Below are positions 13,645 through 39,902 of a DNA stretch of 42,867 bases, in pieces (within the stretch, counting starts at the first letter, position 1; each line of letters starts with the position of its first letter). Source of the DNA: a virus (taxonomy: Duplodnaviria > Caudoviricetes); IMG/VR virus record IMGVR_UViG_3300014169_000011, positions 1 to 42,867 of that record. One strand, written 5' to 3'. The translations under genes and the position numbers were made by a program. The notes under the pieces were generated by a model. It saw nothing but the letters and a program-made list of their open reading frames with translations, was not told the DNA's origin and did no database searches.

Positions 13645-13852
13645 TCTGCGCCTTGATCCCGACGAGGCGAGCGAACTGCTTGTGGTCGGGATCGAGGGCC
13701 ATCGCCATCATCTGCTCGGCGAAGTCGAGCACGGCGGTCTGCAACTTCTCGAAGCGCTCGGGGTGTTTCAGAAGAGCATGTTCGATGCGTAGCCCGAGGA
13801 CTGGATCTGCGGTAGCTGCTTCTTCAGCCGCATCCCGATATCCACCCGCCAC
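13439..13852 (-). CDS. Hypothetical helical protein, last gene of the late arm (start uncertain)
   Basis: The C-terminal part of track ORF 13439..14557 reads as a natural helical protein (ERFEKLQTAVLDFAEQMM...LLADLFS). The GTG at 13852 is a tentative start. Confidence 0.5.
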   Translation of the reverse strand: MAGGYRDAAEEAATADPVLGLRIEHALLKHPERFEKLQTAVLDFAEQMMAMALDPDHKQFARLVGIKAQIMASVMTVTARVRAGDLRPAADDGLDELLARTQASRSNAGFLQTSPARTAELAAERPDEAALLADLFS

Positions 13853-15108
13853 ATGGGCGAGGCCGGCACCTTCACCTTTTCGAGCACGCGGTACGCCTTT
13901 GTCCGAGCGCTGCGCACGCTGTCGCCCACTCCCGACGCCACCAGCACGTAGTCCCCCGCCGTCGTCAGACAGGGCCGGGTCTCGACGCCGGGCGAGCTGT
14001 TCGGCCCGCTCGGTGTATCTTGGGGCGCCTGGCCTTGCTGCGCTTCGCACAGATGCACGTGCTGCTTCACGCTCGGGGTCAGCCCGAGGATCGGCACTCC
14101 GGTCACGTTCTCCATTGGCGTCTTGCCGTACGGGAACTCTGGCAGCGCCATCACCACCCCCACGGCTAGCGAGTTCAGCGAGAAGGGCTTGCTGTCGCGC
14201 CCTTCGCTTAGGCATGCCAACCATTCGACGTGGTCTCCTTTCACCAGGGCCTGCTGGATGTTGAAGGTAGGCCAGCCCATCCGCATCGTAAACTCCAGCG
14301 GCCATGGCTCGCCGTCTTCGTCGATGATGCAGTTGACGTCGACGTACCCGACGTATTTGAGCCGGACCAGCCGGTCTTCCAGGGGTTTCAGGACGCGGTC
14401 GAACAGCTTGCTGCGGGTGACGAATCGCAGGACGGTCCCCATCTCCCCGACGTTGGGACCTTTGTCGCCGGCCATCAGCGACTTGAACTCCCAATTCTCG
14501 CAGACAGCGGAGTTGAACCCGTGAGGACCGCACCAGGCCCCGACAGCCATTTCGCAACCGCTGACCTTTTCCTGCAGGATGAAGGCGCCTTTGAGCTTCT
14601 GGGCTCGCTTCCAGCGCTCGAGCATGTAGACGAGATCAGCGGGGCTCTTCGAGACGTAGGACAGGGATTTGTCTGCCTCGTCGTAACTGGGTTTGGAAAC
14701 GAAGGCCCGGCCTTCTTTCTTCACGTACGCGATGGCGTCATCGTAGCGGGAGAACTCCCGGAACGGTGGCACGGCTATACCGGCTTTCTTGAACGTCTCC
14801 TGGCCGGTCTTCCGGTCAAGTTCCCACGCGGCCGTCTCAACTGAGGCGCCGACGATCGGAGGGGAACCTGCCGCGCGCCAGGCGTCGAGTTCGCGCAGGT
14901 ATTTGGTGTTGTCGGAGAGGACGACGAGGTCGGCCCAGCGCTTGTGATCGCGCCAGTCGTCGGTGGTGCGCACGAGGCCCCGGCCGAAGTTCTTAGTGCG
15001 ATCCGTCTTCTTGAAGTGCCAGATGACGTCGTGGCCGTCGGCCTTCGCGCGCATCGCGAAGTCGAGCATGCCGTCGCCGCCGAAGTGATCGATCAGCAGC
15101 AACTTCAC
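13768..15108 (-). CDS. PurD (GAR synthetase)-like ATP-grasp ligase
   Basis: FVSKP, LQEKVSG.E, FKSLMAGDKGPNVGEMG (cf. PurD HKR..D.DTGPNTGGMG), LEFTMRMGWP and a C-terminal WRVDIG. Confidence 0.8.
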   Translation of the reverse strand: MKLLLIDHFGGDGMLDFAMRAKADGHDVIWHFKKTDRTKNFGRGLVRTTDDWRDHKRWADLVVLSDNTKYLRELDAWRAAGSPPIVGASVETAAWELDRKTGQETFKKAGIAVPPFREFSRYDDAIAYVKKEGRAFVSKPSYDEADKSLSYVSKSPADLVYMLERWKRAQKLKGAFILQEKVSGCEMAVGAWCGPHGFNSAVCENWEFKSLMAGDKGPNVGEMGTVLRFVTRSKLFDRVLKPLEDRLVRLKYVGYVDVNCIIDEDGEPWPLEFTMRMGWPTFNIQQALVKGDHVEWLACLSEGRDSKPFSLNSLAVGVVMALPEFPYGKTPMENVTGVPILGLTPSVKQHVHLCEAQQGQAPQDTPSGPNSSPGVETRPCLTTAGDYVLVASGVGDSVRSARTKAYRVLEKVKVPASPMWRVDIGMRLKKQLPQIQSSGYASNMLF

Positions 15109-18100
15109 GGAACGCCCAGGCTCTGCAGCCCCCTCGTCAGCGGATCGTTGCCCTCCTGCTTCCGAGCTTTCCCGCGCAGCATCTTCGCCGTCGACGCCTT
15201 GACGGAGCCCGGCGGCCGCGGCGGCAGGTCCAGGCCGAACATGTTGCCCGCCACCCGCTCGGCCCCCTGGCCGGGCTTGCCGAGGCCTTCGACGCCCTGC
15301 AGCGGCCCGAACTGGCTGAGCGCCGGATTGACCTCGCCGGCGATGTTGCCCGCTGGCGACTTGAACTTCGAGGCGAGATCCTCGCCGTAGAAGTCCTTCT
15401 GCTTGATCATCTCCGTCCCGAGCTCGGCCTCAGGCGACAGGTCGATCACTTGAGCGATGGCCTGCGCCGGACCTTCCTCGCCCTTGTAGAGCCGGCCGGC
15501 GGCGTCGGGCAGCGACAGCACTCCGCCGCGCTTTACGCGAGCGTTCTGGTTGCCGGTGGCGATCTTCAGGCCTTCGTCGATCGCCGGGATGATCATGGCG
15601 CCCATCACGGCCATGGCGACGAACTGGCCGGCGGCCTCGACCTTCTCTTCAGGCGTGCCCTTGGCGATCTTCTTGAACATGCGACCCCAGGCCGCAAGCT
15701 TGCTGTAGTGGTAGCGGCCGACGCTGAAGAAGCGGTTGTTGGCGAACATGTGGTGCAGCATCCGCCCGCCGGTCTTCGAGTCCATGATCTGCGCCGGCAC
15801 CCGGTAGTTCGGGATCATCTCTTCGGCCTTGCGGATGGCGTCTCGGATCGGCGTGCCTTTCTCCTGCAGCTCCAGGACCCGCTGCATCATCATCGTATCG
15901 CCCACCATCCACATCATCTTGTGCGACCATTCCTGGTAGGACTTGTAGAGTTTATCCGGGCGAATTTTAACGCCCATGGCATCCGTCAGCGCCTTGAAAG
16001 ACTTCAGGTCTTTGATGAGCTGCTGGCCGGCGGTGTCGGTCAGAAACGAATGGAAGTCCTGGGTGCGGGCGTCGGCGCTCAGCATGGCCGATCCCTCGCG
16101 CAGGTAGCGCTGGTACTTCGGCCCCATGGTCGCCACTTCGCGCCAGGCCTCGGGCAGAGTGCGGGCGAGACGGCCATAGCCTTGCGGGTGCAGCCAGTCC
16201 CAGCCGCGGCTCGCGCCCCAGAACTCGGCGATGTTCTTCGGGTGGACGAAGGGCGAGAGGAAGTTCGAGCGCAGCATGAAGTTGTTGATGCGATCCAGGC
16301 TGTCGACCCAATCCTCGCTGTGCTTCGGAAGCCAGTCCTTCAGCTCCTGGACCTGGGCGTCTTCGTGGTTGAACACCCAGCCCTTTAGCTGCGGCACGTC
16401 GGGGAGCGACTTGAAGCCTTTGGCCTCTTCCGGCCGCTTGGCGGAGCCGACGGTGCGGCGCCCGGTCTCCGGGTCGGGGTAGGTCCATTCCTCGCGGTGT
16501 GCGACGCCGCGCTCCTTCATGTCGCTCAGCGTCTGTTCGAGCACGTCGAGGTTCCGCTCGACCCGGCGAAGCTGGAAGACGTTGGCGATGGTGTTGTCGA
16601 TCGCGTCTTTCTTGTAGCGCGTCGGGCCGGCCGCCTCGATCTCCCGAGTCGTCGGCTGCGCCACCTTGAACGTCAGCGGCTTGGCGCCTGACGGGCCTTC
16701 ACCGGGCGGCCGGTACGTCATGCCGGGCTTCAGCTCGCGGTAGGCCTTGTCCTTGGCCGTGTCGACGACGGTGCGCTTGCCGCTGGAAGTGTCTTCGAGG
16801 ACGATGAACTTGCGCTGCTTCTGACTGTCCGCCGTCTTCACGAGGGACTTGCGGGACTGGAAGGGGCTTCGAGGTCCGCCTTGGTCGGAAGCATCCAGAA
16901 CGTTAGGCTGGTCGGATCGAATCCGATGCACGTACCCCTGATCTTCGAGGTAGGCATCGAGGGTAGGATCGGCTCGCTTGCGCAGGCGGTTGGAAATTTC
17001 AGTCTGTTCTTTGAGATACGGGTCCAGAGCCGCCTTGGCTTCCTGAAGTTCCGTCGGCATCGCCGCATCGGACTTAACCAGAGGCTCTTCCAAGGCATGA
17101 TACAGCGCCTCGCTCTTGTCGCCGTGCGCCTTCTGCAACTCGGCCCGCGCACGCCCGAGCTCGATCTTGTCCGCGATGTTCGATCCGTTCAAGCGGTACA
17201 GTGCGTTGGCCGTGCGGGTGGCCGGGTTGGTTTCGTCGCCGACGATCGACGTGCGCGGTGGAACCTCGACGGCTGCGGCCAAAGATCGCGGCTTGCCGGG
17301 ACCTCCTGTTGCCTGAAAAGGATCGCCTTCAACCGGCGTCATCTTCGGCGGTTTGGGCAGGGTGGTCGTATGCAGGCGCGCAGCGTCGCCGGCGGCAACC
17401 GCCTCGCGCCCACCGGCCAGGGCTTCTCGGCCGAGGCGTGACGCGCCGCGCAGGGCTTCAGCGCCCTCTGCGCCAGGGATAGGCGTCAAGGTCTCGGCGA
17501 CGTCGCCCAGCGCCCGCTCTGCGTCACCTGGCGCCGTCCTGCGCTGCTTGGCCTGGAACGCGGCGACCTTCGGATCGTGCTTCGCCACTTCTGAAGGGAC
17601 GTCATCCGGGAGGAAGTGAGACGCGGCTTCGGCGGCGCCGCCGATCGGGGACAGCGCAACCCCCAGGACATCGCCGCCGATCCGGCCCACGTCGACACCT
17701 GGAACGAAAGGGTTGGCCGCGGTAACGCCGGGGTGCTTGAGCGCATCGACGATGTCGCTTCCGGCTCTGCCCGCACGCTCAGCGGTCTTGGCGAAAGGGT
17801 TGCCGGCGTTCGGATCAACGGGCGCAGGGGCGGCGACCGGCGGCTTACTCGGAGCTTTCGGGGCTGGACTAGGAGCCTTTGCAGGCGGCGCGGCAGCGAA
17901 CGGATCGTGGTCAACAGGTGTCAGCGACGGGATGCGGCTGGGCGAATAGTGGATGTGGTCACCCTCATCCAGCAGCTCCTGAGGCTTCGGGTCCCGAGCC
18001 CTGATCGCAGCGACAGCCTGGGCGCGGGTCATGCCGGCCGGCGGCAGAAAGTCGATCGCGTCGTCCTTCAGGTGACGACTGTCCGAGACACCGCCGACTT

Positions 18101-18299
18101 CGCGATTATGTTCGGGCGAGCGCCAAGTGCTTGTGATCCGCGATCCGGGCACGTCGGCCAGCAGCTCGCCGCGGAGCGCCTCGTCCTGGGCGAACGGATC
18201 GTGGTCAACTGGCTGCAGCTTCGGAGCCGCTTTGACAGCAGCCGGTGTCTTTTGAGCGGCGAAGGGATCGTGATCGACAGGGACCAGTTGGGGCATCAC
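15105..18299 (-). CDS. Large internal virion (ejection) protein with an N-terminal peptidase M15-like domain
   Basis: ITSTWRSPEHNREVGGVSDSRHLKDDAIDF...DHIH fits the M15/LAS Zn motif; 1064 aa; last of three internal-protein genes. Confidence 0.75.
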   Translation of the reverse strand: MMPQLVPVDHDPFAAQKTPAAVKAAPKLQPVDHDPFAQDEALRGELLADVPGSRITSTWRSPEHNREVGGVSDSRHLKDDAIDFLPPAGMTRAQAVAAIRARDPKPQELLDEGDHIHYSPSRIPSLTPVDHDPFAAAPPAKAPSPAPKAPSKPPVAAPAPVDPNAGNPFAKTAERAGRAGSDIVDALKHPGVTAANPFVPGVDVGRIGGDVLGVALSPIGGAAEAASHFLPDDVPSEVAKHDPKVAAFQAKQRRTAPGDAERALGDVAETLTPIPGAEGAEALRGASRLGREALAGGREAVAAGDAARLHTTTLPKPPKMTPVEGDPFQATGGPGKPRSLAAAVEVPPRTSIVGDETNPATRTANALYRLNGSNIADKIELGRARAELQKAHGDKSEALYHALEEPLVKSDAAMPTELQEAKAALDPYLKEQTEISNRLRKRADPTLDAYLEDQGYVHRIRSDQPNVLDASDQGGPRSPFQSRKSLVKTADSQKQRKFIVLEDTSSGKRTVVDTAKDKAYRELKPGMTYRPPGEGPSGAKPLTFKVAQPTTREIEAAGPTRYKKDAIDNTIANVFQLRRVERNLDVLEQTLSDMKERGVAHREEWTYPDPETGRRTVGSAKRPEEAKGFKSLPDVPQLKGWVFNHEDAQVQELKDWLPKHSEDWVDSLDRINNFMLRSNFLSPFVHPKNIAEFWGASRGWDWLHPQGYGRLARTLPEAWREVATMGPKYQRYLREGSAMLSADARTQDFHSFLTDTAGQQLIKDLKSFKALTDAMGVKIRPDKLYKSYQEWSHKMMWMVGDTMMMQRVLELQEKGTPIRDAIRKAEEMIPNYRVPAQIMDSKTGGRMLHHMFANNRFFSVGRYHYSKLAAWGRMFKKIAKGTPEEKVEAAGQFVAMAVMGAMIIPAIDEGLKIATGNQNARVKRGGVLSLPDAAGRLYKGEEGPAQAIAQVIDLSPEAELGTEMIKQKDFYGEDLASKFKSPAGNIAGEVNPALSQFGPLQGVEGLGKPGQGAERVAGNMFGLDLPPRPPGSVKASTAKMLRGKARKQEGNDPLTRGLQSLGVP

Positions 18300-20448: not shown

Positions 20449-20940
20449 TCACAGCAGTTTGGCGAACACCCTCCCGGCCAGGAAGTAACCCCTGCGGAGT
20501 AGTAGGTCTCCGAGCGTAGCAGAGACTTTCGTCGCAGTCGAATTGGGCTGTCGTCTGTCTTCCTGGGTGATCAGATGCGCGCCGAGGTCTCGCATGAGAC
20601 CTTCGGCGGCGCCGATGAGATTGTCGCCGGTGCGGCCTTTCCGATAGGCCGGGTCGAGATAGAGGACGTCGTTCACCGCCCAGACCTTATGGCTGTGATG
20701 CAGGGGCGGCTGCAGGAAGTAGGCGGCGTAGCCGATCAGTTTCTTGCCGCGGCGCGCGACCACCGCCTTGTAGATCCCCATGCGCTCGAGCATCAGGTAC
20801 TTGGGCCAGTCGACGTCGAGCGGCATCTCGTCGTGAAGCTGTTCGACCTCCTGCCAGTGCTCGATCAGCAGGTCTTCGAGGCCTTCGGCCAGGAGCGGCG
20901 ATACAGGCTCCAAGGCGTGCGTGACCTCAATCGTCGGCAT
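20449..20940 (-). CDS. GNAT-family acetyltransferase
   Basis: LIGYAAY, NDVLYLDPAYRKGRTG (acetyl-CoA-binding motif A), LLRRGY. Confidence 0.8.
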   Translation of the reverse strand: MPTIEVTHALEPVSPLLAEGLEDLLIEHWQEVEQLHDEMPLDVDWPKYLMLERMGIYKAVVARRGKKLIGYAAYFLQPPLHHSHKVWAVNDVLYLDPAYRKGRTGDNLIGAAEGLMRDLGAHLITQEDRRQPNSTATKVSATLGDLLLRRGYFLAGRVFAKLL

Positions 20941-21421: not shown

Positions 21422-21714
21422 GCAGCGTGAGCCGATAGGGCCGAGAGACAGCGTTCGTACTCGTTCTTGTCGAGAACCCGAGTACGGACCCGACCGCCAA
21501 ATTTCGGAAAGCCGCCGTCGTCTTCCGGACACTTTAGAAGCTCGAGACTGATGCGTTCCCCGATCTGCATCATTAGAAGCTGGATAGCGGCTTTCATTAT
21601 CGGGTGATCAGGGCCGAGGTCGACTGCGTCAGTGACGGTGACCGATTCAGAGAAGTCCGCGTCACCCAGCTTCAGCGTCCACTTGAGGACGAGGGGTTGC
21701 TTTAAGTCAGCCAT
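21418..21714 (-). CDS. Hypothetical protein
   Basis: ATG at 21714 with a GAGG RBS; ATGA-coupled to the next gene. Confidence 0.55.
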   Translation of the reverse strand: MADLKQPLVLKWTLKLGDADFSESVTVTDAVDLGPDHPIMKAAIQLLMMQIGERISLELLKCPEDDGGFPKFGGRVRTRVLDKNEYERCLSALSAHAA

Positions 21715-22172
21715 ACACGAACCTCTGCTGCTCTTCTGGCGACGAGGCCGAGCAGCTTCTGCTCGACGCCGTTCACCCGGCCATAGACCCACTTGTTGAA
21801 CTCGCCCGGCACCGCGGCGAACTGGTTCGACCGGATGCGCAGGCACAGGGTGCTGTTGGAGAAGTTCGAGACGCCAGCGTTGAAGGCGAAGTCGATGCAG
21901 GCGGCATACTGGCCGTCAGTCAACGGCGCGTAGACCGCCTCGCCCAGCGCCGCACAGACGCCAGCAGCCGCAGTTCCGAGATCGGTGATAGCTTGCTCGT
22001 CCGCCTGCGCTTCGGTCCAGACCTCGTCCGTAGGACCAGGAAGAGCGTGGCCCCAACCGATAGTCCAAACGCCAACAGGGTCCAGATAGGCGTCGGCTGC
22101 AAAGGAACCCCCCGGTCCCTTCTCAAACGCGTGGATCAGCCCGAGGCAGGGCTGTGTCGGGATCGGCCTCAC
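21702..22172 (-). CDS. Endolysin, GH24 phage lysozyme
   Basis: FE..., AYLDPVGVWTIGWGH, DFAFNAG, STL, GLVARRAAE. Confidence 0.93.
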   Translation of the reverse strand: MRPIPTQPCLGLIHAFEKGPGGSFAADAYLDPVGVWTIGWGHALPGPTDEVWTEAQADEQAITDLGTAAAGVCAALGEAVYAPLTDGQYAACIDFAFNAGVSNFSNSTLCLRIRSNQFAAVPGEFNKWVYGRVNGVEQKLLGLVARRAAEVRVWLT

Positions 22173-22321
22173 GCGACGCGGCCACCCAGGGTCTTCGGCG
22201 TCGGCGCGGTCTTCGAGCGCGTCGAATCGTTGTTCACGGTGGATTGCGATGTCGGCAGCTTGCGCGACGGATCGCCATCGTGGTTCCAGGTCGGGTTGTT
22301 CGGCGTCAGGGACGGCTTCAT
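22169..22321 (-). CDS. Small hydrophilic hypothetical protein (50 aa)
   Basis: ATG at 22321 after AGGA; stop overlaps the lysozyme GTG. Confidence 0.5.
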   Translation of the reverse strand: MKPSLTPNNPTWNHDGDPSRKLPTSQSTVNNDSTRSKTAPTPKTLGGRVA

Positions 22322-22325
22322 CGGA

Positions 22326-22667
22326 TCAGTCCTGTGGTGTCGCTGCCGCGTTTGTAGCACCGAGTTTCTCGACTGTCTCGCTCGACGCTTCGCTGGCCGT
22401 CTGATGCACCGCCGACAGCGCGGCGATCTTGGCGTCCTGCGCCTGCGCCTGCAGGGCCTGGGAGCTGACGTAGAGATACCCCGCCACGGCCAGCAGGGTT
22501 GAGAACACCAGCGCCCCGCCCCAACCGAGCACGCCGATGATGGTGTTTAGCTTGCTGTTCACGTTCAAGGCTCGCTCCGTGCAGAGCTTTTCGTGACCAC
22601 GGGACCACTCCTTTGCGTCGAAGTGGCCGGACCAGTCTGTCACAGTCTCATCTACGTCGCGAGCCAT
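22326..22667 (-). CDS. Membrane protein, holin/antiholin candidate
   Basis: GGAG RBS; one TM segment (IIGVLGWGGALVFSTLLAVAGYLYV); close to the endolysin gene. Confidence 0.55.
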   Translation of the reverse strand: MARDVDETVTDWSGHFDAKEWSRGHEKLCTERALNVNSKLNTIIGVLGWGGALVFSTLLAVAGYLYVSSQALQAQAQDAKIAALSAVHQTASEASSETVEKLGATNAAATPQD

Positions 22668-23107: not shown

Positions 23108-23569
23108 TTAGTTGTAAACCAGGCAGTGCGCGATGACGGTGGCGCTCAAGGCGCCGGACACCGCGGAGTTGATGACCTGCATGGTGAAGGTGCCGGCCGC
23201 CGGAACGATGTTGGTGATGCCCGGAGCTCCGGTGCCGCCATAGCCGTTCACCGAACACACGATCGTCGAGGACGCGGTGACGGAGGTATCGGTCACGGTC
23301 ATCGCCGCGGCCAGGGTGCCGCCGGCGGCGGTGGACAGGCCAGTGGTCGAGATCAGAAGGTTCAGGCCAGGGCAGGTCGCCGTGGTGGTGCCGGTGCAGG
23401 CCGAGGCTGGCTGGGTCGTCGGGAACCCGGCGTTCACGTTGAAGATGGCCTGGTTGACCATCACGTTCGGCACGTCGTTCGGGCCGGTGTAGTAGGGGAT
23501 CGGAGCGGCGAAAGCCGGGACCGCCCAGAGCAGTGCAAAGGCGGCCAGCAGGCCGAGAATCCGCTTCAT
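23108..23569 (-). CDS. Signal-peptide-bearing beta-rich protein (fibre/decoration candidate)
   Basis: AAAGGGG RBS; MKRILGLLAAFALLWAVPAFA|AP; Thr-rich; 4 Cys. Confidence 0.8.
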   Translation of the reverse strand: MKRILGLLAAFALLWAVPAFAAPIPYYTGPNDVPNVMVNQAIFNVNAGFPTTQPASACTGTTTATCPGLNLLISTTGLSTAAGGTLAAAMTVTDTSVTASSTIVCSVNGYGGTGAPGITNIVPAAGTFTMQVINSAVSGALSATVIAHCLVYN

Positions 23570-23597
23570 CGAAGATGCCCCTTTCAAGGTTGCAGCG

Positions 23598-23626
23598 ACG
23601 CTAACAGATGGCGGGGTCAGCGTCAA
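23598..23626 (-). promoter_or_regulatory. Putative internal sigma70-type promoter
   Basis: Minus strand TTGACG-N17-TAGCGT in the intergenic gap upstream of 23569. Confidence 0.55.
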
Positions 23627-23628
23627 AA

Positions 23629-25050
23629 TCAGTAGGCAGTTGCCGTAAAGCCGATCACGTCGGCGGCTACGGTGGTGCCGGTAAACGTGCAGCTATTCGT
23701 CGCGGTGGCGGTTTGCTTGAGCGTGTCGGCCACCGTGGTTTCGTCGGTCGCCGTGCAGACCCATCCGTTCGGCGCAGTCGGGAGAGCGACGATGACGGTC
23801 TGAGCCGTACAGGTAGCCTTGAACGTCCCCGCGGTCGCGCCCCCAACCTGGGTCGAAGTCGTGCAAGACCCGGTCAAGCCCGGCGCCGAGCCGCCCGCAG
23901 CGAAGCCGGCCGTGGCTTTGAAGAGTCCGGCCGGGCTTAGTGAAGCCAGCAGCGTGGCGCTAGATCCGCCCGTCTGCTGATACCAGGCATGACTCGACGT
24001 AGCGGATGTGTAGGTGTTCCAGTAATCGATTTCGCCGGCGCCGCCCTGGAAGTTCCAGGTTTCGACACCGGAGTTCCCGTTCGACGGATAGACGCCGCTG
24101 TCGTTGCCCGAGACGACCAGCGTCTGTACGACGGCGAGGCCCCCGCAAGTTACCTGGAACTTGGCGGTCGCCTCGTCCCGCAGGAAGTTGGTGCAGCCTC
24201 TGGCGCCTGCATTGAACAGGAGCATGTCGGGAACTTGCGTGTTCGCATCGCTGTTGATGCGCGCTCCCATCGCCACCGTGTCGTAGGGCGTCAGCGTCAT
24301 GGCCTCGGCGGACTGCGCCGAACACCCTGCGCCCGCGACGGTCCACGTCGGGTTCGAGCCCGCTGTAATCACGCAGCTCGCGCCCAGCGTCCCGCCGGTA
24401 ACCGTCTGCCCGAGTTGCGTGACGCCGGAAGTCTGCGAGTTCACCGTGAGCGTGAAGGGGCCGGTCCCGGTTATTGTCCCGTTGATGACACCGGGTAGGC
24501 CGCCCGTCTTGGCCCACACATCGAGAACGACACGAGCCAGGCTGGCATCGCCGCCGATACCGTAGACGTCTTCCTCGTCGCCTGTGCTGCTGCCGACAGG
24601 GTTGGGGAAGTTGCTGTCGAGTTCGTGCGTCGCGCCCCAGGTGGAACCTGAAGACGCCTGCACCGCACGAGAGTAGAACGCCGTGTTTTGTGACCCGTCG
24701 CCAGACGTGGAATTGTTAACCAAATAGGCCGTTAAGGCTCGCTCCCAGGTGAGTCGGCCCGGCGGAACCTGCATGAAGGCCGTTTCGCAGTCCGAGGTAG
24801 TCCCCGTCGTGCCGCCCGTCCAGGGCTGGTTACTGTAGCACTGGAAAGTCTCGGAGTTGGTTTGCGAGGTCGAGGCATCGACCACGGCGAACGGCCGGAC
24901 CGTCTGCGCCAGCCCGCTCGTCCAGTAGGTGAAGGGGACGCCGACATTCCAGGTCGCGAACGGTCCGGACCCCGAGGCGCTCGACTGCTGCGCCGCCGCC
25001 AAACCGGGAAGGGCGAGGATGAACGCTAGCGCCAGCAGGGACTTTCGCAT
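23629..25050 (-). CDS. Signal-peptide-bearing tail fibre/spike-like protein (paralog A)
   Basis: Start moved to ATG 25050 (TGATG coupling); MRKSLLALAFILALPGLAAA|QQ; Thr/Gly/Ser-rich; 10 Cys. Confidence 0.8.
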   Translation of the reverse strand: MRKSLLALAFILALPGLAAAQQSSASGSGPFATWNVGVPFTYWTSGLAQTVRPFAVVDASTSQTNSETFQCYSNQPWTGGTTGTTSDCETAFMQVPPGRLTWERALTAYLVNNSTSGDGSQNTAFYSRAVQASSGSTWGATHELDSNFPNPVGSSTGDEEDVYGIGGDASLARVVLDVWAKTGGLPGVINGTITGTGPFTLTVNSQTSGVTQLGQTVTGGTLGASCVITAGSNPTWTVAGAGCSAQSAEAMTLTPYDTVAMGARINSDANTQVPDMLLFNAGARGCTNFLRDEATAKFQVTCGGLAVVQTLVVSGNDSGVYPSNGNSGVETWNFQGGAGEIDYWNTYTSATSSHAWYQQTGGSSATLLASLSPAGLFKATAGFAAGGSAPGLTGSCTTSTQVGGATAGTFKATCTAQTVIVALPTAPNGWVCTATDETTVADTLKQTATATNSCTFTGTTVAADVIGFTATAY

Positions 25051-25490
25051 CACTGCCAGTCCGCAGACAGGAAGGCGTGGGTGCTCTGAGTTTCGGTGAA
25101 GCATCCTGTCGTGCTGACAACCATCACTATGCCGTTCTGGAAATTCACTCCCCCTGGAACGAAACCCGCCGAGAAACTGGTTGTTCCGCTCGACATGGCG
25201 TAGCACTTGGCTGGCGCCACCGTGCCGTTGCCGGGGTCGGCGGAGGCGTCGTAGATCAATATCCACCACGCCGCCCCCGAGAGCGTTGAATCGGCACTGA
25301 CTTCGAAGCTCTGAAGCTTGTGAGACCCGGTGACGGCGACGAGGTTTGTCGAGAGCACCGACGAGGACGCTTTGAACGCACCAGCCTGCTGAGCGTACGC
25401 CGGATCGCTGCCGCCGAACGCCAGGCACAGCAGTGCGAAGGCGACGACGGCGCCGATCTCAAGCCAGTGTCTGATCTTGCGCATCGTCAT
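25050..25490 (-). CDS. Signal-peptide-bearing small beta-rich protein
   Basis: MRKIRHWLEIGAVVAFALLCLAFGGSDPAYA|QQ; 2 Cys in the mature part. Confidence 0.78.
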   Translation of the reverse strand: MTMRKIRHWLEIGAVVAFALLCLAFGGSDPAYAQQAGAFKASSSVLSTNLVAVTGSHKLQSFEVSADSTLSGAAWWILIYDASADPGNGTVAPAKCYAMSSGTTSFSAGFVPGGVNFQNGIVMVVSTTGCFTETQSTHAFLSADWQ

Positions 25491-25491
25491 T

Positions 25492-26610
25492 CTAGGTCCC
25501 TACGCATTGGTAGCCGATCGTGTCGGTGTTGGTTCCGGTGAGAGTGAACTGGGTCCCGCTGGTCGTATGCACTTCCACCGAGGCGTTGGCCGAGGCATCG
25601 TTGGCCGTGCAGACGTAGCTGGTGTTGCTGGTGTAGACCGCCCCGCCGCTCAACGTGATCGTCGCCGTCCCTCCGACCAACGCCACGTAGCCGTCGACCT
25701 GATGGTGGTTGCCCTGCGCGGAGTTCGACACATAAAGCGGATCGCCGGCGTTGACCGAATTTATTTCGAGAGCCGACGTGGCGTTGAACGTCGTCCCTGT
25801 GAAGTTGCCAGAGCAGTCGATCTTGAAGGTCGAGGTCGCGACATCGTTGATGAAGTTAGTGCAGCCGCGGTGCGCCAGGTTGAACTGGATGACATCGCCA
25901 AACAGCGCGAAGGTGTCCTGGTTGAACCGCAGCGCCTTGGCGATTGTGTCATTGGCCGCGTTGAAGCTCTTGCCCCAAACGTCGACAACCACGCGCGCGT
26001 TGTTGGTGTCGGTGCCCTCGGCGTCGAGGTCGAACTCGTGCGTGACGCTGGACGTAGTCGGATTGGCCGACCAGTCGTCGAGTTCTGACGTACCGGCGAA
26101 AGTCGATCCTGTCGACGTCTTGGCGGCGCGAGCATACAGGGCCGTGTTCTGCGCGGCGTCCGCGCTGGTGGACTGGTTCACCAGATAGGCCGTCAGAGCT
26201 CTATCGAAGGTCAGCCGACCCGCCGGCGCCAGGTCGTAGGCCGTGAAGCAGCTCCGCGCGGTTCCTGGCGCCCCCAACGTCCAGGCGGTCGCGCTATAGC
26301 ACTGCAAGGGCTCAGAGTTGGTTTGCGAGGTTGAAGCGTCGACCGCGGCAAACGGGGTAGTCTCCGACGCAAGACCTGTCGTCCAGTCCGTCAGAGGGAC
26401 GCCAACCGTCCAGGTCTCCAAGCCTCGGTTCAAGAAGCTGAAGTCGGCGAGGTTCAGTGTCGTGAACTGCTTGGTCACGCCGACCTGCGTGCCGATCACC
26501 GCGTCGCTGGTGTTGAGCGGCTCCGTCGCAAAAGGGTAGCCCGTGATCGGGCCGGCTAACGCCGGGAAAGCGGCGAGTGCGAACAGCAGGGTGAGTAGCT
26601 TGCGCATCAT
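25492..26610 (-). CDS. Signal-peptide-bearing tail fibre/spike-like protein (paralog B)
   Basis: MMRKLLTLLFALAAFPALA|GP; shares a long domain with 23629-25050; 6 Cys. Confidence 0.8.
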   Translation of the reverse strand: MMRKLLTLLFALAAFPALAGPITGYPFATEPLNTSDAVIGTQVGVTKQFTTLNLADFSFLNRGLETWTVGVPLTDWTTGLASETTPFAAVDASTSQTNSEPLQCYSATAWTLGAPGTARSCFTAYDLAPAGRLTFDRALTAYLVNQSTSADAAQNTALYARAAKTSTGSTFAGTSELDDWSANPTTSSVTHEFDLDAEGTDTNNARVVVDVWGKSFNAANDTIAKALRFNQDTFALFGDVIQFNLAHRGCTNFINDVATSTFKIDCSGNFTGTTFNATSALEINSVNAGDPLYVSNSAQGNHHQVDGYVALVGGTATITLSGGAVYTSNTSYVCTANDASANASVEVHTTSGTQFTLTGTNTDTIGYQCVGT

Positions 26611-27536
26611 CCGATCTTCTGCAGGATCACGTCGGAGTAGATCTCAAGATCACCGGTGCTGACCGCGGTGCCTGTCGTGCCGACATTGGCGTTGAAGTAG
26701 GTATCGAACTCCAGCGTGGTCGTTCCGGAAAGCGTGAAGCAGCCTTGCACGCTACCTTCGCCCGTCAGACCGGTCCCGATGCCGATCTCAGGCCCCAGAA
26801 CCTCGTTCGCGCTCAAAGTGATGTTGCGAAGACGAAAGCGCCCCTGCGCCGGGCCGCCCGAGATGTTGAGACCCCCCACGGCGAAAGCGCAGTAGTTGCC
26901 GGCCGGGATGCCGGTGATCTGGTTGCCTGACAGCGACACCCCCGCGATGCTGGCGGCGACAGTAGCGTTGAGCGGACGAACCGACCACGTCGAGACCGTC
27001 AGCGACGATCCGGCGGTTCCCGAGGCACGCTGTTCCTGGAACTCCGCAAACGGCAACGTCACAGCCGCCCAACTCGCTGCCGAGCCGTTCGTGGTCAAGT
27101 ACTTGCCGCTGTTCGCGGTCTGTGAAGGCGCGAGATTGTTGAACGTCGTCGTCAGGTTGGAGAAGTCCGACCCGTTGTTGACCTTCGCCGTCCCGCCCAG
27201 GTTGGATAGCGCGGTGAGTTCATTCGCCACGTCCGTCAGGTTATTCGCGGCCAGGAGCCCGCCCAGGGCGCTGATGGCGCCCGCGCCCGTCGTAGAGCCT
27301 GTTCCGCCTTGGGGGATGCTCAGCGGCGTCGTAAGACCGCTCAACGACGTGATGTTCGAGTTCGCGCCGCTGTTGGCGGCGGCGCCGGCGCAAGTGTTCA
27401 CCGAGTTCAGATTCGCCATGACCTGATTGGCGTCGGCCGTCTGGCCGTTGGTCAGCGTGTAAGGCAGCGAAGGACACACAGCTCCCGCCAGGCCGGGGAC
27501 GGCCAGCAGGGCGAGTGCGATCAGCCAATGTCTCAT
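26607..27536 (-). CDS. Tail fibre protein with an N-terminal signal peptide
   Basis: Start moved to ATG 27536 (ATGA overlap with the nozzle stop); MRHWLIALALLAVPGLAGA|V. Fibre motifs YTLTNGQTADANQVMAN, NSNITSLSGLTTPLSIPQGGTG, AANNLTDV...ALSNLG, SQTANSGKYLTTNG. Confidence 0.82.
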   Translation of the reverse strand: MRHWLIALALLAVPGLAGAVCPSLPYTLTNGQTADANQVMANLNSVNTCAGAAANSGANSNITSLSGLTTPLSIPQGGTGSTTGAGAISALGGLLAANNLTDVANELTALSNLGGTAKVNNGSDFSNLTTTFNNLAPSQTANSGKYLTTNGSAASWAAVTLPFAEFQEQRASGTAGSSLTVSTWSVRPLNATVAASIAGVSLSGNQITGIPAGNYCAFAVGGLNISGGPAQGRFRLRNITLSANEVLGPEIGIGTGLTGEGSVQGCFTLSGTTTLEFDTYFNANVGTTGTAVSTGDLEIYSDVILQKIG

Positions 27537-29509
27537 GCCGCTATCCCTGCCGCGTTGAACCCGGCGCCGAGGTATCCAAGCTCTACATACTCTAGATTTG
27601 CGTTGCCGATGACAAATCCTGCCGCCGACTGTCCTGCGACGAGCAGCGACGCCTGCTTGAAGATCAGCGATTGCGACCAGTGGAGACCGTACTGCCGATA
27701 CGGCGTGACCGCGGCGCCCCACGTCGCCGAGCCCCAGTCGAAGGCATCCCAGACCGATCCGCCGGCGCCGGGCGCCGCGATCACCGCCGAGCCTATCACC
27801 GTGCCGAGTTCGTTCGTTCCGATGACCGTGACAGATATCCCGCCCGGCATCGAAAGACCGATCGCACCGCGAGGGCTGCTGTTCGCCGCCATGGCTTCGT
27901 TGTCGGGCAACAACGACGTCTGCCAGGTGAACGTCATGGCGACGCCGTTTTCCACGTATGTAGAGTTTGCCGATGGTAGCGCACTAGACTCGTATATGAA
28001 CCCGTCTACACCGGGTTGTGTCATAATAAACGAGTTTACCGGAGAATATATAGCCGCGTTCAAAGCAGCAACAGACGTGTGAGGCCCGGTCCATATAGTC
28101 AGGTTCATGTCGTACCAATACTCTTGATACGGCTCCCCGTTCACGGCTCCGTTCTGAACTGTTATCCGCAAGACGTTTTGGTTATACGCTGCGGTCATCC
28201 GCGTAGGACTGATGGCGTACTGGAAAGGAACCGACACACCCTGGCCGTCGGCGCCGATCGGGGCGGACGACTGGCCGTTGAGCCCGATGATCCGCACCCC
28301 GTCGGGCGCCACATAGGCCACGCCGATCGGCGTCGGCGTGATCGTGTTCGGCGCCAGCGTGCCGACTGAGCCGTTGACGAAGTTGCTCTCCAGCGGTGAT
28401 GCCGTCGAGCTTGGATCGCCTGTGACCTGCCAGTAGCCGCCCGAGCCCTTGAAGACGATCAACGACTGGATGGTGCCGCCGATGACCTGATTAGCAAGAG
28501 GCACGCCGCCTATCGCGGTAACGGATGTGCTGTCGCCCATGGTGAGCGCCGGCACGAACGTCCCACCCGCCCCGGTGAACTGCAGCGGCTGCAGCGCATC
28601 CGAGAAGGTGACGCCATTATTGACCGCCAGGTAGGCCCGGCCGTTGAACTGGGAGACCGCAACCGGCACGGCAGGCAGAGGGAATGCGCCGGACACCTGG
28701 CCCGAGCCGTAGAGCGGCGCAGCCATCGTTCCGCCGGTGACGGTGAACGTGACCCCTGCATGCGATCCTGTCGCCGCCTGGGAGATCGTCACCGCCGTGC
28801 CGGCGGCGTTGATGCCGGTGATGTAGGTCCCCGCCGGAAGGTCCCCTGCCGAAGTCTGGATCAACTGCCCCACCGACCAGCCGAGCGTGAAAGCGCTCGC
28901 CGACAGGGTGTCGATCGTCGTGTTGCCGTGCGTCGCCCCGGTCACTGCGCCGGTATAGGAGAAGCCCGAAACATCGATCCAGCCGATGAAGTGCGTGACG
29001 CCATCGTAGCCCGGATGGGTGATCAGGATTTTGTTCGCGATCATGTCCATCTGCGGCGGGGTCCAGTCGCCGGTGTTGTTCGTGCTGACCGGTGTGTTGG
29101 CGGCGGTGACATTGCCGATCGTCACGAAGGACCCGGCTACCGCGTCATAGCAGAAGGGCTCGCTGTTCCCCGCATACCGGCCAGTCTGCACCATGCCGTA
29201 GATGCGAGAGCCGACGACGTAGAGCGCCTCGACGATGTCCGGCGCCGTGAACGAACCGGCGACCGCGTAGATGATGTTGCCGTTCGAATCGAGCAGCGGG
29301 TTGCCGTTGCTGTCGAGCAGCGGATCGCTGCCGCCGAGCTCGACGAGCGCCACGATGGCGGGGCGCGGAACGAACTGCTGCGAGGTCGACGGGTTGGGGA
29401 TCAGGTTCTGCAGCGACTGCATCGAGCCCGGAAAGGCGTTCGAGCCGTCGATAGCGTCGGACAGGCCTTTCGCTTTGAAGGTCAGAGGTCTCCCTTTGCG
29501 AACCGGCAT
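27533..29509 (-). CDS. Tail nozzle / packaged-DNA stabilization protein (P22 gp10 / T7 gp12-like)
   Basis: 658 aa from ATG 29509; GLSDAID, LQNLIP, QFNGRAY, VAYVAPDGVR beta-propeller-like pattern; lies after the adaptor gene. Confidence 0.72.
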   Translation of the reverse strand: MPVRKGRPLTFKAKGLSDAIDGSNAFPGSMQSLQNLIPNPSTSQQFVPRPAIVALVELGGSDPLLDSNGNPLLDSNGNIIYAVAGSFTAPDIVEALYVVGSRIYGMVQTGRYAGNSEPFCYDAVAGSFVTIGNVTAANTPVSTNNTGDWTPPQMDMIANKILITHPGYDGVTHFIGWIDVSGFSYTGAVTGATHGNTTIDTLSASAFTLGWSVGQLIQTSAGDLPAGTYITGINAAGTAVTISQAATGSHAGVTFTVTGGTMAAPLYGSGQVSGAFPLPAVPVAVSQFNGRAYLAVNNGVTFSDALQPLQFTGAGGTFVPALTMGDSTSVTAIGGVPLANQVIGGTIQSLIVFKGSGGYWQVTGDPSSTASPLESNFVNGSVGTLAPNTITPTPIGVAYVAPDGVRIIGLNGQSSAPIGADGQGVSVPFQYAISPTRMTAAYNQNVLRITVQNGAVNGEPYQEYWYDMNLTIWTGPHTSVAALNAAIYSPVNSFIMTQPGVDGFIYESSALPSANSTYVENGVAMTFTWQTSLLPDNEAMAANSSPRGAIGLSMPGGISVTVIGTNELGTVIGSAVIAAPGAGGSVWDAFDWGSATWGAAVTPYRQYGLHWSQSLIFKQASLLVAGQSAAGFVIGNANLEYVELGYLGAGFNAAGIAA

Positions 29510-29510
29510 A

Positions 29511-30308
29511 TCAGACCCCCGCGCCGTGCATCCGCAGCGCCAACGGGAGAACAGAGAGCAAAGCCAGGGACCACCCCACGACTTTGGTATTCCTGAGATT
29601 CGAGTACGACCGGCCAAACCTTCGCAGGTCGAGCTTTACGGTCGTCGCCCGATTCGAGCGGTTGTCCTTCAGCTTCAGGTACTCGCGCAGATCGTCGTCG
29701 GCCTCCTGGTCCCATTGCGCTTGGCGATCGTCGTCGACCTCACCCATCAGGGCGGCCGTAACCTTCTTGCGCAGATACCCCTGGTGCGGGAACCAGGGGA
29801 CGACAGCCGACGTCTCAGGCGTCGCGATGTCGGCCATCTGGCTGAAGTACCGGATCGTGTAGGGGTAGGCGCCGCTGGCGGGGGCGTAGACGTAGAACAC
29901 CGGCGTCGCGTTGTCCGTCAGGCTCATGTCGGTGGCAATGACGTAGGGATACGACTGCGACCCTGCCTGCTGCACCGTCATGTCGATCTCGCTGAGATCG
30001 CAGGGGATCATCAGATACGGAACGCCGGACCCTGGGAGGACCCAGAAGGCCGAGTGATCGTCCTTCATCCGTAGGAAATCCGCCGGCAGGGCGTACGGCC
30101 CCGATCCGTAGAGGCCTAGATTTCCGACAGCGGTGATCTGTCCCGGAACGAAATTCCCGTACGCGGTCTTCGCGGCGATCTCGAAGTCATAGGTCCGGCA
30201 CAGGTCGCCCAGCACCATGTTGAGCAACTGACCGCACTGCGTGATGAAGCCTGGCGCGTGGGCCGCCGCGCAGCAGCGTGTGACGATCTGCGCAGCGGTA
30301 AGCGCCAC
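29511..30308 (-). CDS. Head-to-tail adaptor protein
   Basis: LTAAQIV, LLNMVL.DL, YALPADFLR, YVYAP...Y.Y.IRY; position in the virion module. Confidence 0.7.
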   Translation of the reverse strand: MALTAAQIVTRCCAAAHAPGFITQCGQLLNMVLGDLCRTYDFEIAAKTAYGNFVPGQITAVGNLGLYGSGPYALPADFLRMKDDHSAFWVLPGSGVPYLMIPCDLSEIDMTVQQAGSQSYPYVIATDMSLTDNATPVFYVYAPASGAYPYTIRYFSQMADIATPETSAVVPWFPHQGYLRKKVTAALMGEVDDDRQAQWDQEADDDLREYLKLKDNRSNRATTVKLDLRRFGRSYSNLRNTKVVGWSLALLSVLPLALRMHGAGV

Positions 30309-32136: not shown

Positions 32137-33489
32137 TCAGCCGAAGGTCGCGGTCAGGGCGCTGACGCTTTCGATGCGCGCGGCGAACTGGATGTTGGAG
32201 ATGAGCGTGCCGTAGAAGGCCTTCCAGCCGACTATGCGCAGTTGGTTGAGCGGGTCTGACTTGTCCGCGTCCTTCAGATAAGTGAATCGGACTTGGTCGA
32301 GTTCGACCTGGGCGTAGGCGCCCTTCCCGATCACGAAGGTCGGATACACCGTCAGGCCCGCGGTCGGCGTCGCCGGCGGGACCTGCATCGGCCCGATGGC
32401 GGTGAGGACGACCGTCTGGCCGCCGGCCATCTGGGTCGCGATTCCGGCGAGCGGGCCTTGGGTCGGCCCGGCGGCGGAGAGCGCCAGGTTCTGCGGCGTG
32501 GCGGTGGTGCCGATGTAGGCGGTGTAGGTGTAGCCCACGGTCGACGGCAGGGTCACGGAGATCGAGCCGTTCGGGCCGGTGACGTTCACGTTGCCGCTGA
32601 TCGCGTAGATCAGGGACTCGTACTGGTTCTGCGTGTCCTGGCCGGTAATGATCACGTTGTAGGTGGTCGAGGACGCCAGGGCGCCGGCGGTGCCCGCGGT
32701 GGCGTTCTGGCCGGTGTTGGCGACGCCCGTCAGGAACGGGATCAGGTTCGACTTGCAGAACCGGATGCCGCCCCACTCGCCGGCCTCGTAATTGTAGAGG
32801 CGGTTCAGGTCGGAATAGGTCCAGGCCAGCTTCACATCCGATTGCTGGCGGAAGTCGCCGACGACGAGCGTGTGGATCATCGCCACGTAGTGCGGCATGC
32901 CGCGCGGATCGGAGCTCGCCTTGGTCGGCCGGCCGGCGTCGATCTTGGTATCGGTCATCGTGTCGCCCATGAAGTAGGGCGCGCCGAGGGTTTCGAGAGC
33001 GGCGGTGGTGCGGATGACGGTCTGGCCATCGAGCACGTCGCCGGCGACCAGGGCGCCGCGCGAGCCGCGGCTGTTCACGTAGTTGACCTGCGGCAGCGCC
33101 ATGAGCGCCAGGAAGGTGTTGCGCTCGAGCGTTTCAGCGAGCTGCAGGGCGATGAGTTCGATCGCCTTCTGGAACAGCGGGTGCTTGATCGTCATCTCGG
33201 CGACGTCGGTGATCGTCACCTTGTCGCCCCACTGAAGCGCCGTGGCCGTGACCTGCTGGATCGTGAGGTTTTCGCCGATCGGCGGCACGCCCTCGGAGAG
33301 CGGCGCGTACGGCAGCGGGAGGCGCTGGTAGCGCGTGGCGGTGTAGGTGACGCCGCGGCCCTTCGGGATACCCTCGGACTTGTCGGCGAACTGGAAGGCG
33401 ACGAGCTGACGCTGCGCGAGGGGCAGCGTCTTGTCGGCGATATAGCCTTCGACGTCGGCTTGGGTGAAAGCGGAAGTGTTGACGGCCAT
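32137..33489 (-). CDS. Major capsid protein (N4 gp56-like HK97 fold) with an inserted beta domain
   Basis: IPKGRG, PLSEGVPP, QWGD.V.ITD, EAGEWGGIRF, DKSDPLNQ...VGWK. Confidence 0.9.
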   Translation of the reverse strand: MAVNTSAFTQADVEGYIADKTLPLAQRQLVAFQFADKSEGIPKGRGVTYTATRYQRLPLPYAPLSEGVPPIGENLTIQQVTATALQWGDKVTITDVAEMTIKHPLFQKAIELIALQLAETLERNTFLALMALPQVNYVNSRGSRGALVAGDVLDGQTVIRTTAALETLGAPYFMGDTMTDTKIDAGRPTKASSDPRGMPHYVAMIHTLVVGDFRQQSDVKLAWTYSDLNRLYNYEAGEWGGIRFCKSNLIPFLTGVANTGQNATAGTAGALASSTTYNVIITGQDTQNQYESLIYAISGNVNVTGPNGSISVTLPSTVGYTYTAYIGTTATPQNLALSAAGPTQGPLAGIATQMAGGQTVVLTAIGPMQVPPATPTAGLTVYPTFVIGKGAYAQVELDQVRFTYLKDADKSDPLNQLRIVGWKAFYGTLISNIQFAARIESVSALTATFG

Positions 33490-38458: not shown

Positions 38459-38586
38459 CAGCCCTTCCGCCAGTGGCCCTGAGCGCTATGCTTCGTGAAC
38501 CCGAAGCGGAGACACCGACCACCGGGGCCTTCAACGAAGGGGTGCGGCGTAGATGGCGGGAGTTGAGTGGTGTGCGGCGAAGACAT
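38458..38586 (-). CDS. Small hypothetical protein (42 aa)
   Basis: TGATG-coupled to both the KTSC stop and the TerL start. Confidence 0.45.
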   Translation of the reverse strand: MSSPHTTQLPPSTPHPFVEGPGGRCLRFGFTKHSAQGHWRKG

Positions 38587-38831
38587 CAGACCTGCTCGTA
38601 GCTATACCGGCCTTTGATGTGCCGGGCGAAGAACTCGCCCTTGGACCCGGCCGCCTGGAAGGCCCGATGGGTCGTCGGCGGGACGTTGTAGTACTCGTAG
38701 GTGTCCCCTGAGTTGAAGTCGACCTGCAGGGTGTCGGTGCTTTTGTCGTAGCGGAACTCGGAGATGTTCGACGAGACGAACCCCGATGTGTGCTCCCAGG
38801 GATCGACTGGCGGCTTGGCGTCATCTGCCAT
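38586..38831 (-). CDS. KTSC domain protein
   Basis: VSSNI....YD.....L.V.F.SG..YEY..VP........A.SKG.FF...IKG.Y. Confidence 0.9.
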   Translation of the reverse strand: MADDAKPPVDPWEHTSGFVSSNISEFRYDKSTDTLQVDFNSGDTYEYYNVPPTTHRAFQAAGSKGEFFARHIKGRYSYEQV

Positions 38832-39020: not shown

Positions 39021-39161
39021 CTACTTCGCCTCGCCGCCGTCCCGGATGCGGGCCTCGCAGGTCCACACCAGATCCCAGAAGTGATCGTCGGGCACGTTGG
39101 TCTTCTCAGCCATTTCCGTCGCGAGCTCGACAGCTTTGGCCCGGATTTCCTGGTCGGTCAC
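39021..39161 (-). CDS. Small hypothetical protein (46 aa)
   Basis: Manual translation MTDQEIRAKAVELATEMAEK...; GGAG RBS and GTGA overlap. Confidence 0.55.
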   Translation of the reverse strand: MTDQEIRAKAVELATEMAEKTNVPDDHFWDLVWTCEARIRDGGEAK

Positions 39162-39376
39162 TTGCCTGCTCCGCACAGCTTCGTCCAACCGTCGTCATAC
39201 GCCTTGACCTGTTTGATCGTGGCGGCCGTGTCGTGCAGCCGGTCGAAGGTGATCGGCGAGAACTCCAGGCACGCCAGGTCGGCGACCGACGCCTTAGTCA
39301 CGGGAGAAGGGGGAGGGGTCGCGCACGCTCGCAGGGTCAGCAATAGAATGACCCAGAGAAGCGCGCTCAGCAGCAC
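39158..39376 (-). CDS. o-spanin (Rz1-like) lipoprotein (alternative start at 39472)
   Basis: Hydrophobic stretch, LRAC lipobox-like site, Pro-rich linker, DT..TI.QV.AY......C; overlaps the i-spanin gene in another frame. Confidence 0.7.
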   Translation of the reverse strand: MLLSALLWVILLLTLRACATPPPSPVTKASVADLACLEFSPITFDRLHDTAATIKQVKAYDDGWTKLCGAGK

Positions 39377-39557
39377 CGACCCCGGCCACGGCCACAGTCG
39401 CAGCGTTCGCCTGGGCAGTCTGGGCGTTGGCGTCGACCACGGCCTGCTGGGACTGCCCGAGCTTCTGTTCATCGATCCTGGCCTGCTGCGCCTCGGCCCA
39501 GTTGGCGAGCGCGCCAAACAGAGGACCGAGGACAACACTGACGATCCACGACCACAC
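39294..39557 (-). CDS. i-spanin (Rz-like)
   Basis: N-terminal hydrophobic anchor, then a Gln/Ala helical region ending DPSPFSRD. Confidence 0.6.
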   Translation of the reverse strand: MWSWIVSVVLGPLFGALANWAEAQQARIDEQKLGQSQQAVVDANAQTAQANAATVAVAGVGAAERASLGHSIADPASVRDPSPFSRD

Positions 39558-39558
39558 G

Positions 39559-39900
39559 TCAGAGCGGCGCGGTGGTCGTTCCGACAGCCGCCTGCAGATC
39601 GGCGATCAGCTTTGTGACCGTGCCCTGCAGAGTCGTCAGCGAGGTCGCCGCGGCGGTATCCGTGCCCCCGCCGGACGCTTCGGCCGCGGCGATGGCGGCC
39701 GTGATGGCGCCGGGCGCCTGTTCGTCGAGGGTGACGAGCGAAGCGTTGACCGCGTCGATCCCGTCCGAAAGAACTGACATGAGCTGTCTCCGTTGATGCT
39801 CGTGTGGTGAAGCCTCTAGGGCCACCAGCCATTGTTGCACTTTGCCGGTCTCGATGCGAGCCCGCTTGATCCGCTCGAGGATGTCCTCGACTGTCGCCAC
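39559..39900 (-). CDS. Hypothetical helical protein with a probable internal start at 39780
   Basis: Open from GTG 39900; GGAG-N7-ATG at 39780 is in frame. Confidence 0.55.
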   Translation of the reverse strand: MATVEDILERIKRARIETGKVQQWLVALEASPHEHQRRQLMSVLSDGIDAVNASLVTLDEQAPGAITAAIAAAEASGGGTDTAAATSLTTLQGTVTKLIADLQAAVGTTTAPL

Positions 39901-39902
39901 GA

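Follow-up and report, generated by a model that had tools for sequence, protein, structure and literature searches.

On the usual view, tailed phages complete their particles in the cytoplasm before lysis, and fibres of the type found in phage SU10 and in PDB entry 8VBX are assembled there and are not known to have leaders, unlike the five gene products considered here. P22 and T4 are known cases in which particles that are otherwise complete receive their fibres late, in mixed lysates, and virion proteins with cleavable signal peptides are known from filamentous phages, in the coat proteins pVIII and pIII. The subject of this report is a block of five consecutive genes, A–E, that follow the tail nozzle gene in the podovirus record IMGVR_UViG_3300014169_000011 (hereafter the window, meaning the whole stretch of 42,867 bases that was analysed), and that all begin with a predicted Sec-type leader. 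Several described systems come close to this arrangement. Fibre trimers dock on the adaptor ring in SU10 (PMC9509320). The MAT fibres of Bdellovibrio bacteriovorus are phage-fibre-like trimers behind a signal peptide, and some of their tips are TNF-like and disulphide-bearing (PMC10769870). Sec-exported polymorphic toxins combine a signal peptide with RHS and tail-fibre repeats, and use Sec and TcdB/TcaC routes (PMC3482391), and the virion of Agrobacterium phage Milano contains many disulphides, receptor-binding proteins included (PMC10811340).

Genes A–E are listed in the order in which they follow the nozzle gene, with lengths in amino acids (aa).

26607..27536, minus strand: gene A, 309 aa, with a conserved N-terminal domain that contains Cys21/Cys49 and a helix at residues 36–55, a fibre shaft motif and a predicted TNF/C1q-like tip at residues 160–308
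27480..27536, minus strand: predicted Sec signal peptide of A, residues 1–19, whose ATG overlaps the nozzle stop
25492..26610, minus strand: gene B, 372 aa, predicted leader at 26554–26610; C-terminal part similar to a tail-fibre family; paralogue of D
25050..25484, minus strand: gene C, 144 aa, predicted leader at 25392–25484; small domain of a virus-associated family
23629..25050, minus strand: gene D, 473 aa, predicted leader at 24991–25050
23108..23569, minus strand: gene E, 153 aa, predicted leader at 23507–23569; predicted helix and beta-sandwich

Leaders were called with a rule-based heuristic of our own, which asks for a basic n-region, an uncharged hydrophobic 8-mer, and small residues at positions −3 and −1. 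Applied to 24 late-region proteins, the test was positive for exactly A–E and negative for the other 19. Among 1223 window start codons followed by at least 60 open codons, 22 were positive; ten of these are starts of A–E, and the remaining 12 fall within a gene or in shadow frames, which corresponds to a background of 12/1213 (~1%). The test flagged nothing in a set of 161 core proteins from related loci and the window itself, which comprised the portal, the capsid protein, the adaptor, the nozzle and two small proteins of the head region. Features of signal peptides for Sec and signal peptidase I are predicted in all five proteins, none of which has a lipobox or twin-arginine motif by eye, and which retain 4 (A), 6 (B), 2 (C), 10 (D) and 4 (E) cysteines in their mature parts. 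A preliminary description of this DNA, made from the letters alone, had proposed five consecutive post-nozzle genes with Sec-type leaders at corrected starts, and on both counts it was right: the peptides are present at those starts, and the starts themselves are sound. Genes A, B, C and D begin at −4, −4, +1 and −1 nucleotides (nt), respectively, from the preceding stop and are thus coupled to it, whereas E begins 59 nt after D, is preceded by a purine-rich stretch, and is backed by 27 homologues that begin at the equivalent Met. Gene C would encode 146 aa if started from an ATG at 25490. A–E are very probably exported via their predicted Sec leaders.

The preliminary description had also called for a survey of homologous loci, and there the leaders prove to be conserved in kind and not in letters, with a mean identity of 29% in the leaders versus 71% in the adjoining domain. 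A first search with A, in which the query contained the leader, found 188 homologues, and 22 of the 120 listed were left out for want of the N-terminal domain; the remaining 98 comprise 80 with a leader (the window's own included), 17 that start at the domain (two of them truncated) and one that is unclear. Because a leader-containing query could bias these counts, the A domain was searched a second time without its leader, yielding 578 clusters at 50% identity. Among the best 150 of the 578, 113 have a leader, 28 are leaderless and nine are unclassified. The cysteine pair of the domain occurs in 110/113 of the leader-bearing and 0/28 of the leaderless members of these best 150, and the number of mature cysteines is even or zero in 100/113 versus 17/28, a comparison in which the query itself contained the cysteines and the relatives are not independent samples, so that its p-value is exaggerated. 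In the E family, a leader is present in 28/28 members (the window's included), all with two or four mature cysteines, and for C it is present in 6/6 non-self loci, three of them near-identical. A strict lipobox was found in 1/80 of the leader-bearing A homologues and a twin-arginine motif in 0/80; the near-absence of both points to Sec and signal peptidase I, and therefore to export in an unfolded state with folding outside the cytoplasm. As judged from the sequences, the predicted leaders on A–E are a real, conserved and widespread feature, and export followed by oxidative folding outside the cytoplasm is well supported.

Related loci fetched for comparison (given L-numbers where they have to be told apart) include a same-nozzle set of 37, the window among them and two pairs being near-duplicates. 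The domain-bearing gene is the first after the nozzle in 32 of these loci and the second in five, and its start is placed between −13 and +16 nt relative to the stop before it. A leader was called for this gene in 31 loci (29 of them by rule, two by eye), and in six it has none. Four further loci, three with a leader (one by eye) and one without, bring the same capsid–adaptor–nozzle chassis to 41 loci, 34 with a leader on this gene and seven with a leaderless primary fibre (L001, L020, L025, L043, L117, L119 and L122). The predicted mature ends align with the N-termini of the leaderless forms and, since the mature protein is co-linear with these relatives from its first residue, the leader is best viewed as something added to a fibre that is normal in other respects. 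When mapped on a tree built from 26 capsid proteins, the leader label needs five changes versus a mean of 5.5 for shuffled labels; the tree is weak, with 6/23 inner branches well supported, and at least two changes are forced. The leader states are thus scattered, and gain, loss or exchange of the leader has taken place more than once. L001 also lacks the leader on a second appendage family, with E 8.9e-9 to leader-bearing relatives; the tie of gene E to the leaderless L001 gene is indirect, via L019, L036, L038 and L080, and the window's E did not match a profile of the second N-terminal helix family. Small leaderless genes of ~80 aa with a variant A domain stand directly behind a leader-bearing fibre in L006 (11067–11312) and L124 (4712–4954), and the window has no such gene.

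These alignments also bear on two alternatives for the route of the proteins. In one, the fibres would stay in the cytoplasm, either because a downstream start bypasses the leader or because the leader is a non-secreted folding aid. Codon 20 of A is indeed GTG, an in-frame GTG or TTG lies within 12 codons before the domain core in 14 of the 37 loci, and the leader calls rest on a rule-based heuristic. However, no ribosome-binding site precedes these codons in any of the 14 loci, their positions vary, and the other 23 loci have none; moreover, the leader start is coupled to the upstream stop, and the cysteine pair tracks the leader. A true start downstream of the hydrophobic segment, which the preliminary description had named among the findings that would overturn it, was thus not found with a ribosome site in any of the 37 loci, and a cytoplasmic location is highly improbable. 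In the other alternative, the proteins would be exported and left uncleaved, as fibres tethered to the inner membrane on its periplasmic side, where particles would be captured or from which they would leave in membrane fragments or vesicles. Cleavage is a prediction, and the adaptor of the window ends in 19 hydrophobic residues (29514–29570, minus strand) beyond the end typical of relatives, with a similar extension in L049. Against tethering, the extension is missing from most adaptors, and the small-residue −3/−1 sites are kept across divergent leaders and located where leaderless relatives begin. We regard this alternative as improbable, if less so than a cytoplasmic fibre.

As for the nature of the exported proteins, both homology and the predicted fold identify A as a tail fibre, likely the primary one. 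It occupies the position expected of a podovirus fibre, after adaptor and nozzle in the late operon, and of its eight PHROG matches, five are named tail fiber protein and one tail protein. Its shaft motif resembles the SU10 fibre chain 7z47_D (E 1.2e-8; profile search E 5.1e-17), which we take to be the long fibre gp12, as well as 8vbx_R (1.8e-10). Homology to solved virion fibres of the T7/SU10 type in shaft or tip is thus seen for A, and B has a family match alone (residues 218–371 to the tail-fibre family phrog_32740, E 1.6e-14); T7/SU10 fibres are normally assembled in the cytoplasm without signal peptides, unlike the leader-bearing A–E. The monomer model of A, with a mean pLDDT (predicted local distance difference test) of 71, has the helix at residues 36–55, a low-confidence shaft and a beta-sandwich tip. 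In the PDB, the folds ranked highest against this model belong to a portal-tail chain of a cyanophage (9k09_A, E 6e-9), to a domain of a short tail fibre (8ke9_A) and to TNF/C1q-like trimer heads; the tip of the MAT fibre Bd2734 is matched too. The preliminary description placed the fibre motifs directly after the cleavage site of A, which has to be corrected: the match to the solved fibre begins ~35 residues later, and the stretch just behind the cleavage site is a conserved family domain unmatched by sequence in the PDB. Its statement that no signal-less fibre is encoded elsewhere does hold for the window, which contains no second, leaderless copy of the A domain or the shaft motif; A is the sole window protein found with either.

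B and D are paralogues (58% identity over 150 aa), and the C-terminal domain of D is common to a leader-bearing gene of a related phage. The model of E has a pLDDT of 85 and gave 27 matches at E <=0.001 among predicted viral proteins, mostly uncharacterised and one of them a collagen-repeat protein; the fold recurs as the C-terminal part of many phage proteins, and in the PDB nothing matched it at E <=0.001. Sequence searches of the PDB with B, D and E returned nothing significant, and Pfam and NCBIfam gave no meaningful match for any of A–E. In L123 (4313–5341), a phage with another chassis, a leader-bearing gene with the E domain stands among head genes, and E may accordingly be a head appendage. 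C resembles virus-only clusters to which no function has been assigned, and its role is the least certain among the five. No relative of C, or of the C-terminal parts of A and B, was detected among 7789 frames of the fetched loci.

The components with which A–E would have to meet are the following.

29511..30308, minus strand: adaptor of SU10 type (PF24175, E 8.1e-12), leaderless
27533..29509, minus strand: nozzle, 658 aa, assigned from position and conserved synteny, leaderless
32137..33489, minus strand: major capsid protein (phrog_1357, E 6.6e-32), leaderless
21702..22172, minus strand: endolysin (PF00959, E 2e-28), leaderless by the rule-based test
39158..39557, minus strand: spanin-like overlapping pair; the frame that ends at 39158 matches an Rz-like spanin (phrog_1275, E 1.3e-5)

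We consider it probable, though well short of certain, that A–E are fibre or appendage proteins that are exported, mature in the periplasm, and dock on a leaderless particle at lysis. The proteins would be made late and pass through Sec, their leaders would be cleaved in the periplasm, and disulphide formation by host Dsb enzymes and trimerisation would take place in the same compartment; meanwhile, head, adaptor and nozzle would assemble and fill in the cytoplasm. Leaderless endolysins need holin lesions to leave the cytoplasm, and since the endolysin of the window is leaderless, it should depend on large lesions of this kind. Docking of the A N-terminal domain on the adaptor, the expected partner of a primary fibre, would take place once the holin lesions have opened, and before or during removal of the outer membrane by the spanins, at a time when the proteins are not yet diluted. 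Cleavage sites are predicted for all five proteins, and folds for A and E. The preliminary description had put forward exported fibres that dock at lysis as a single claim, and its two parts fared differently: leader conservation, the cysteine pair and the lack of internal starts bear out export and oxidative folding, and the attachment to virions and its timing are what we infer. The case for these is best for A and poorest for C, with B, D and E in between at a fair level.

The A domain is not confined to phages. Among 37 A-domain loci in bacterial genomes, four have a phage chassis, and an RHS-like gene is present in 31 of the 33 that lack one, mostly in Alphaproteobacteria. All 12 large genes scanned, from 11 loci, contain Pfam RHS repeats, ten of the 12 have a leader (by the rule-based test at any start within the first 90 codons), and an S74 fibre chaperone domain (Pfam) was found in four adjoining domain-bearing genes; there was no RHS match in the viral loci or the window. 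In L085–L118, leader-bearing A-domain fibres, often in tandem, stand beside large, mostly leader-bearing RHS genes, for example in L090 (6659–17235), L110 (1622–11227) and L092 (9881–17478), and these RHS–fibre loci are a candidate exported targeting system. A physical association of the two products is something we infer from adjacency. The RHS-linked copies fit folding and docking outside the cytoplasm, since the likely partner is also exported, and they show at the same time that leader-plus-domain proteins can exist apart from virions.

The latter point supports a third alternative, in which the particle adsorbs by the nozzle alone and A–E are exported non-virion proteins: decoys, receptor-masking or exclusion proteins, or cell adhesins. 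Relatives of C, which occur among head-packaging genes of other phage types, fit it as well, being single and near terminase or portal genes; in L128, L130 and L131, leader-bearing C relatives adjoin genes that by eye resemble terminase or portal genes, and the surroundings contain no fibre block. A role outside the virion is difficult to reconcile with A filling the slot of the related phages' leaderless fibre with no replacement in the window, and with the translational coupling of the genes to the nozzle in a late operon. Known exclusion proteins such as T5 Llp, Cor and lambda Lom are lipoproteins or outer-membrane proteins, with a lipobox or a beta-barrel fold. The single lipobox among 80 A homologues is unlike lipoprotein-type blockers, and neither the A model nor the E model is a barrel. 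For the five genes together, we find this alternative unlikely, although it remains the strongest of the three, and for C it deserves more weight.

Several observations weigh against exported fibres that dock at lysis. Besides the non-viral fibres beside RHS genes, L043 (6314–8535) and L122 (2073–5828) combine a primary fibre that lacks a leader with genes behind it that have one, an arrangement that a non-virion role would also explain, and some leader-type phages encode leaderless fibre-like genes as well: the leader test flagged 47 of 60 fibre-like genes in leader-type loci and did not flag 13, some of which are wrong starts or ejection proteins. The pair of cysteines is missing from 12 leader-bearing domains in the fetched loci, and disulphides can therefore explain export only in part; a fair statement, from the sequences compared, is that the pair is seen with a leader only and that a leader does not require the pair. 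The whole-model fold match of A is weak by TM-score (0.36). Sequence searches of the PDB with A matched a solved fibre in the shaft and gave no adaptor-binding domain for the N-terminal part, and the docking role of this N-terminal domain consequently rests on position. A complex prediction with two copies of the adaptor and three of A residues 20–129, run without alignments, speaks neither for nor against docking (score of 0.02, mark of 0.34). No holin was identified among the window genes, and the adaptor had 0 matches among 50,697 deposited phage records. In the available part of the Milano paper (PMC10811340), the word 'periplasm' is absent and no export is described and, because this virion has many disulphides nonetheless, virion disulphides alone prove nothing about export.

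The window is a complete record with a completeness rating of 100% and a G+C content of 64%. The minus strand encodes terminase, portal, capsid protein, adaptor, nozzle, genes A–E, endolysin, acetyltransferase and, in three large genes, what are likely ejection proteins, and the plus strand encodes helicase, exonuclease, polymerase and primase; no integrase was matched among the window proteins covered by family scans. Matches of the capsid protein were all below 30% identity and, with the adaptor unmatched, no cultured relative is at hand. In a host search, the window capsid protein was not found in five genomes with RHS-linked fibres or in 401 sampled genomes of one family. Among sequencing runs, one DNA run was listed with a match, which is possibly the source of the window itself, and no RNA run was listed. 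Family searches gave no match for the nozzle. A lineage-specific short repeat insert lies at ~29260–29335 (minus strand) in the nozzle gene, the L117 nozzle has an insert at the equivalent place, and L005 and L008 have similar repeats at the nozzle C-terminus; by eye, the insert is possibly a docking site for B-type proteins. A likeness between the insert and the N-terminus of B was seen by eye only, and neither a pattern search nor phmmer reproduced it. The lysis genes are split between 21702–22667 and 39158–40525 (minus strand), the endolysin being part of the late operon, whereas the spanin-like pair lies upstream of the terminase along with genes for small membrane proteins; a gene with a KTSC domain is found at 38586–38831. 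One of the likely ejection proteins (15105–18299, minus strand; 1064 aa) has a peptidase M15 domain near its N-terminus. The late operon ends with an ATP-grasp gene (13768–15108, minus strand) related to glycinamide-ribonucleotide synthetase, which many relatives keep together with the acetyltransferase (20449–20940).

If fibres are exported and dock at lysis, they would add a lysis-tied final assembly step, tie infectivity to the host Sec and Dsb systems, and open access to disulphide-locked adhesin folds. Such genes are readily filed as secreted host-like proteins, which is a risk for annotation. The natural pairs of leader-bearing and leaderless fibres on one chassis make this idea directly testable, and RHS-linked copies in cultured rhizobia offer a bench model for the A domain. 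A broader proposal would be that a widespread group of tailed phages makes its virion in two compartments, with a leader that is gained and lost like a switch on one chassis and a docking domain common to an exported RHS–fibre system, so that phages and bacteria would draw on one pool of secreted targeting fibres; it is a tentative one, which we consider slightly less likely than not.

Compared with known systems, the parts are of known kinds, and the assembly route that they imply is undescribed in the literature searched. No paper on signal-bearing fibres of a tailed phage was found among the matches listed from openly licensed PubMed Central and bioRxiv full texts, where supplement proteome tables could still hold one, and the main text of the LME-1 paper (PMC12407071), as far as available, does not contain the words 'signal', 'periplasm' or 'disulfide'. 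The likeness to SU10 (Kuravirus, PDB code 7Z47) and to gp47 of PDB 8VBX consists of the shaft motif, together with the SU10-type adaptor in the window; the match lies in the shaft and not at the docking end, and capsid and genome differ. Leaderless fibres of the same phage group share with A the chassis, the N-terminal domain and the gene slot, but have neither a leader nor the domain cysteine pair. Milano is a myovirus in which disulphides join core parts. Filamentous phages extrude their particle, with no head, tail or lysis involved, and keep pVIII and pIII in the inner membrane until then. In the polymorphic toxins, as far as described, the fibre repeats are inside the toxin protein, whereas the RHS-linked A-domain fibres are separate, neighbouring genes. 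MAT fibres are found on the bacterial cell surface and are not virion parts, and, in the available description, a beta-rich domain of ~130 aa follows their signal, a place taken in the A and E models by a short segment and a helix; by analogy, they make export and trimerisation of a phage-type fibre feasible. The nearest precedents for genes A–E, within the parts of these papers available, are thus the Bdellovibrio MAT fibres, the Sec-exported toxins with fibre repeats, and the coat proteins of filamentous phages.

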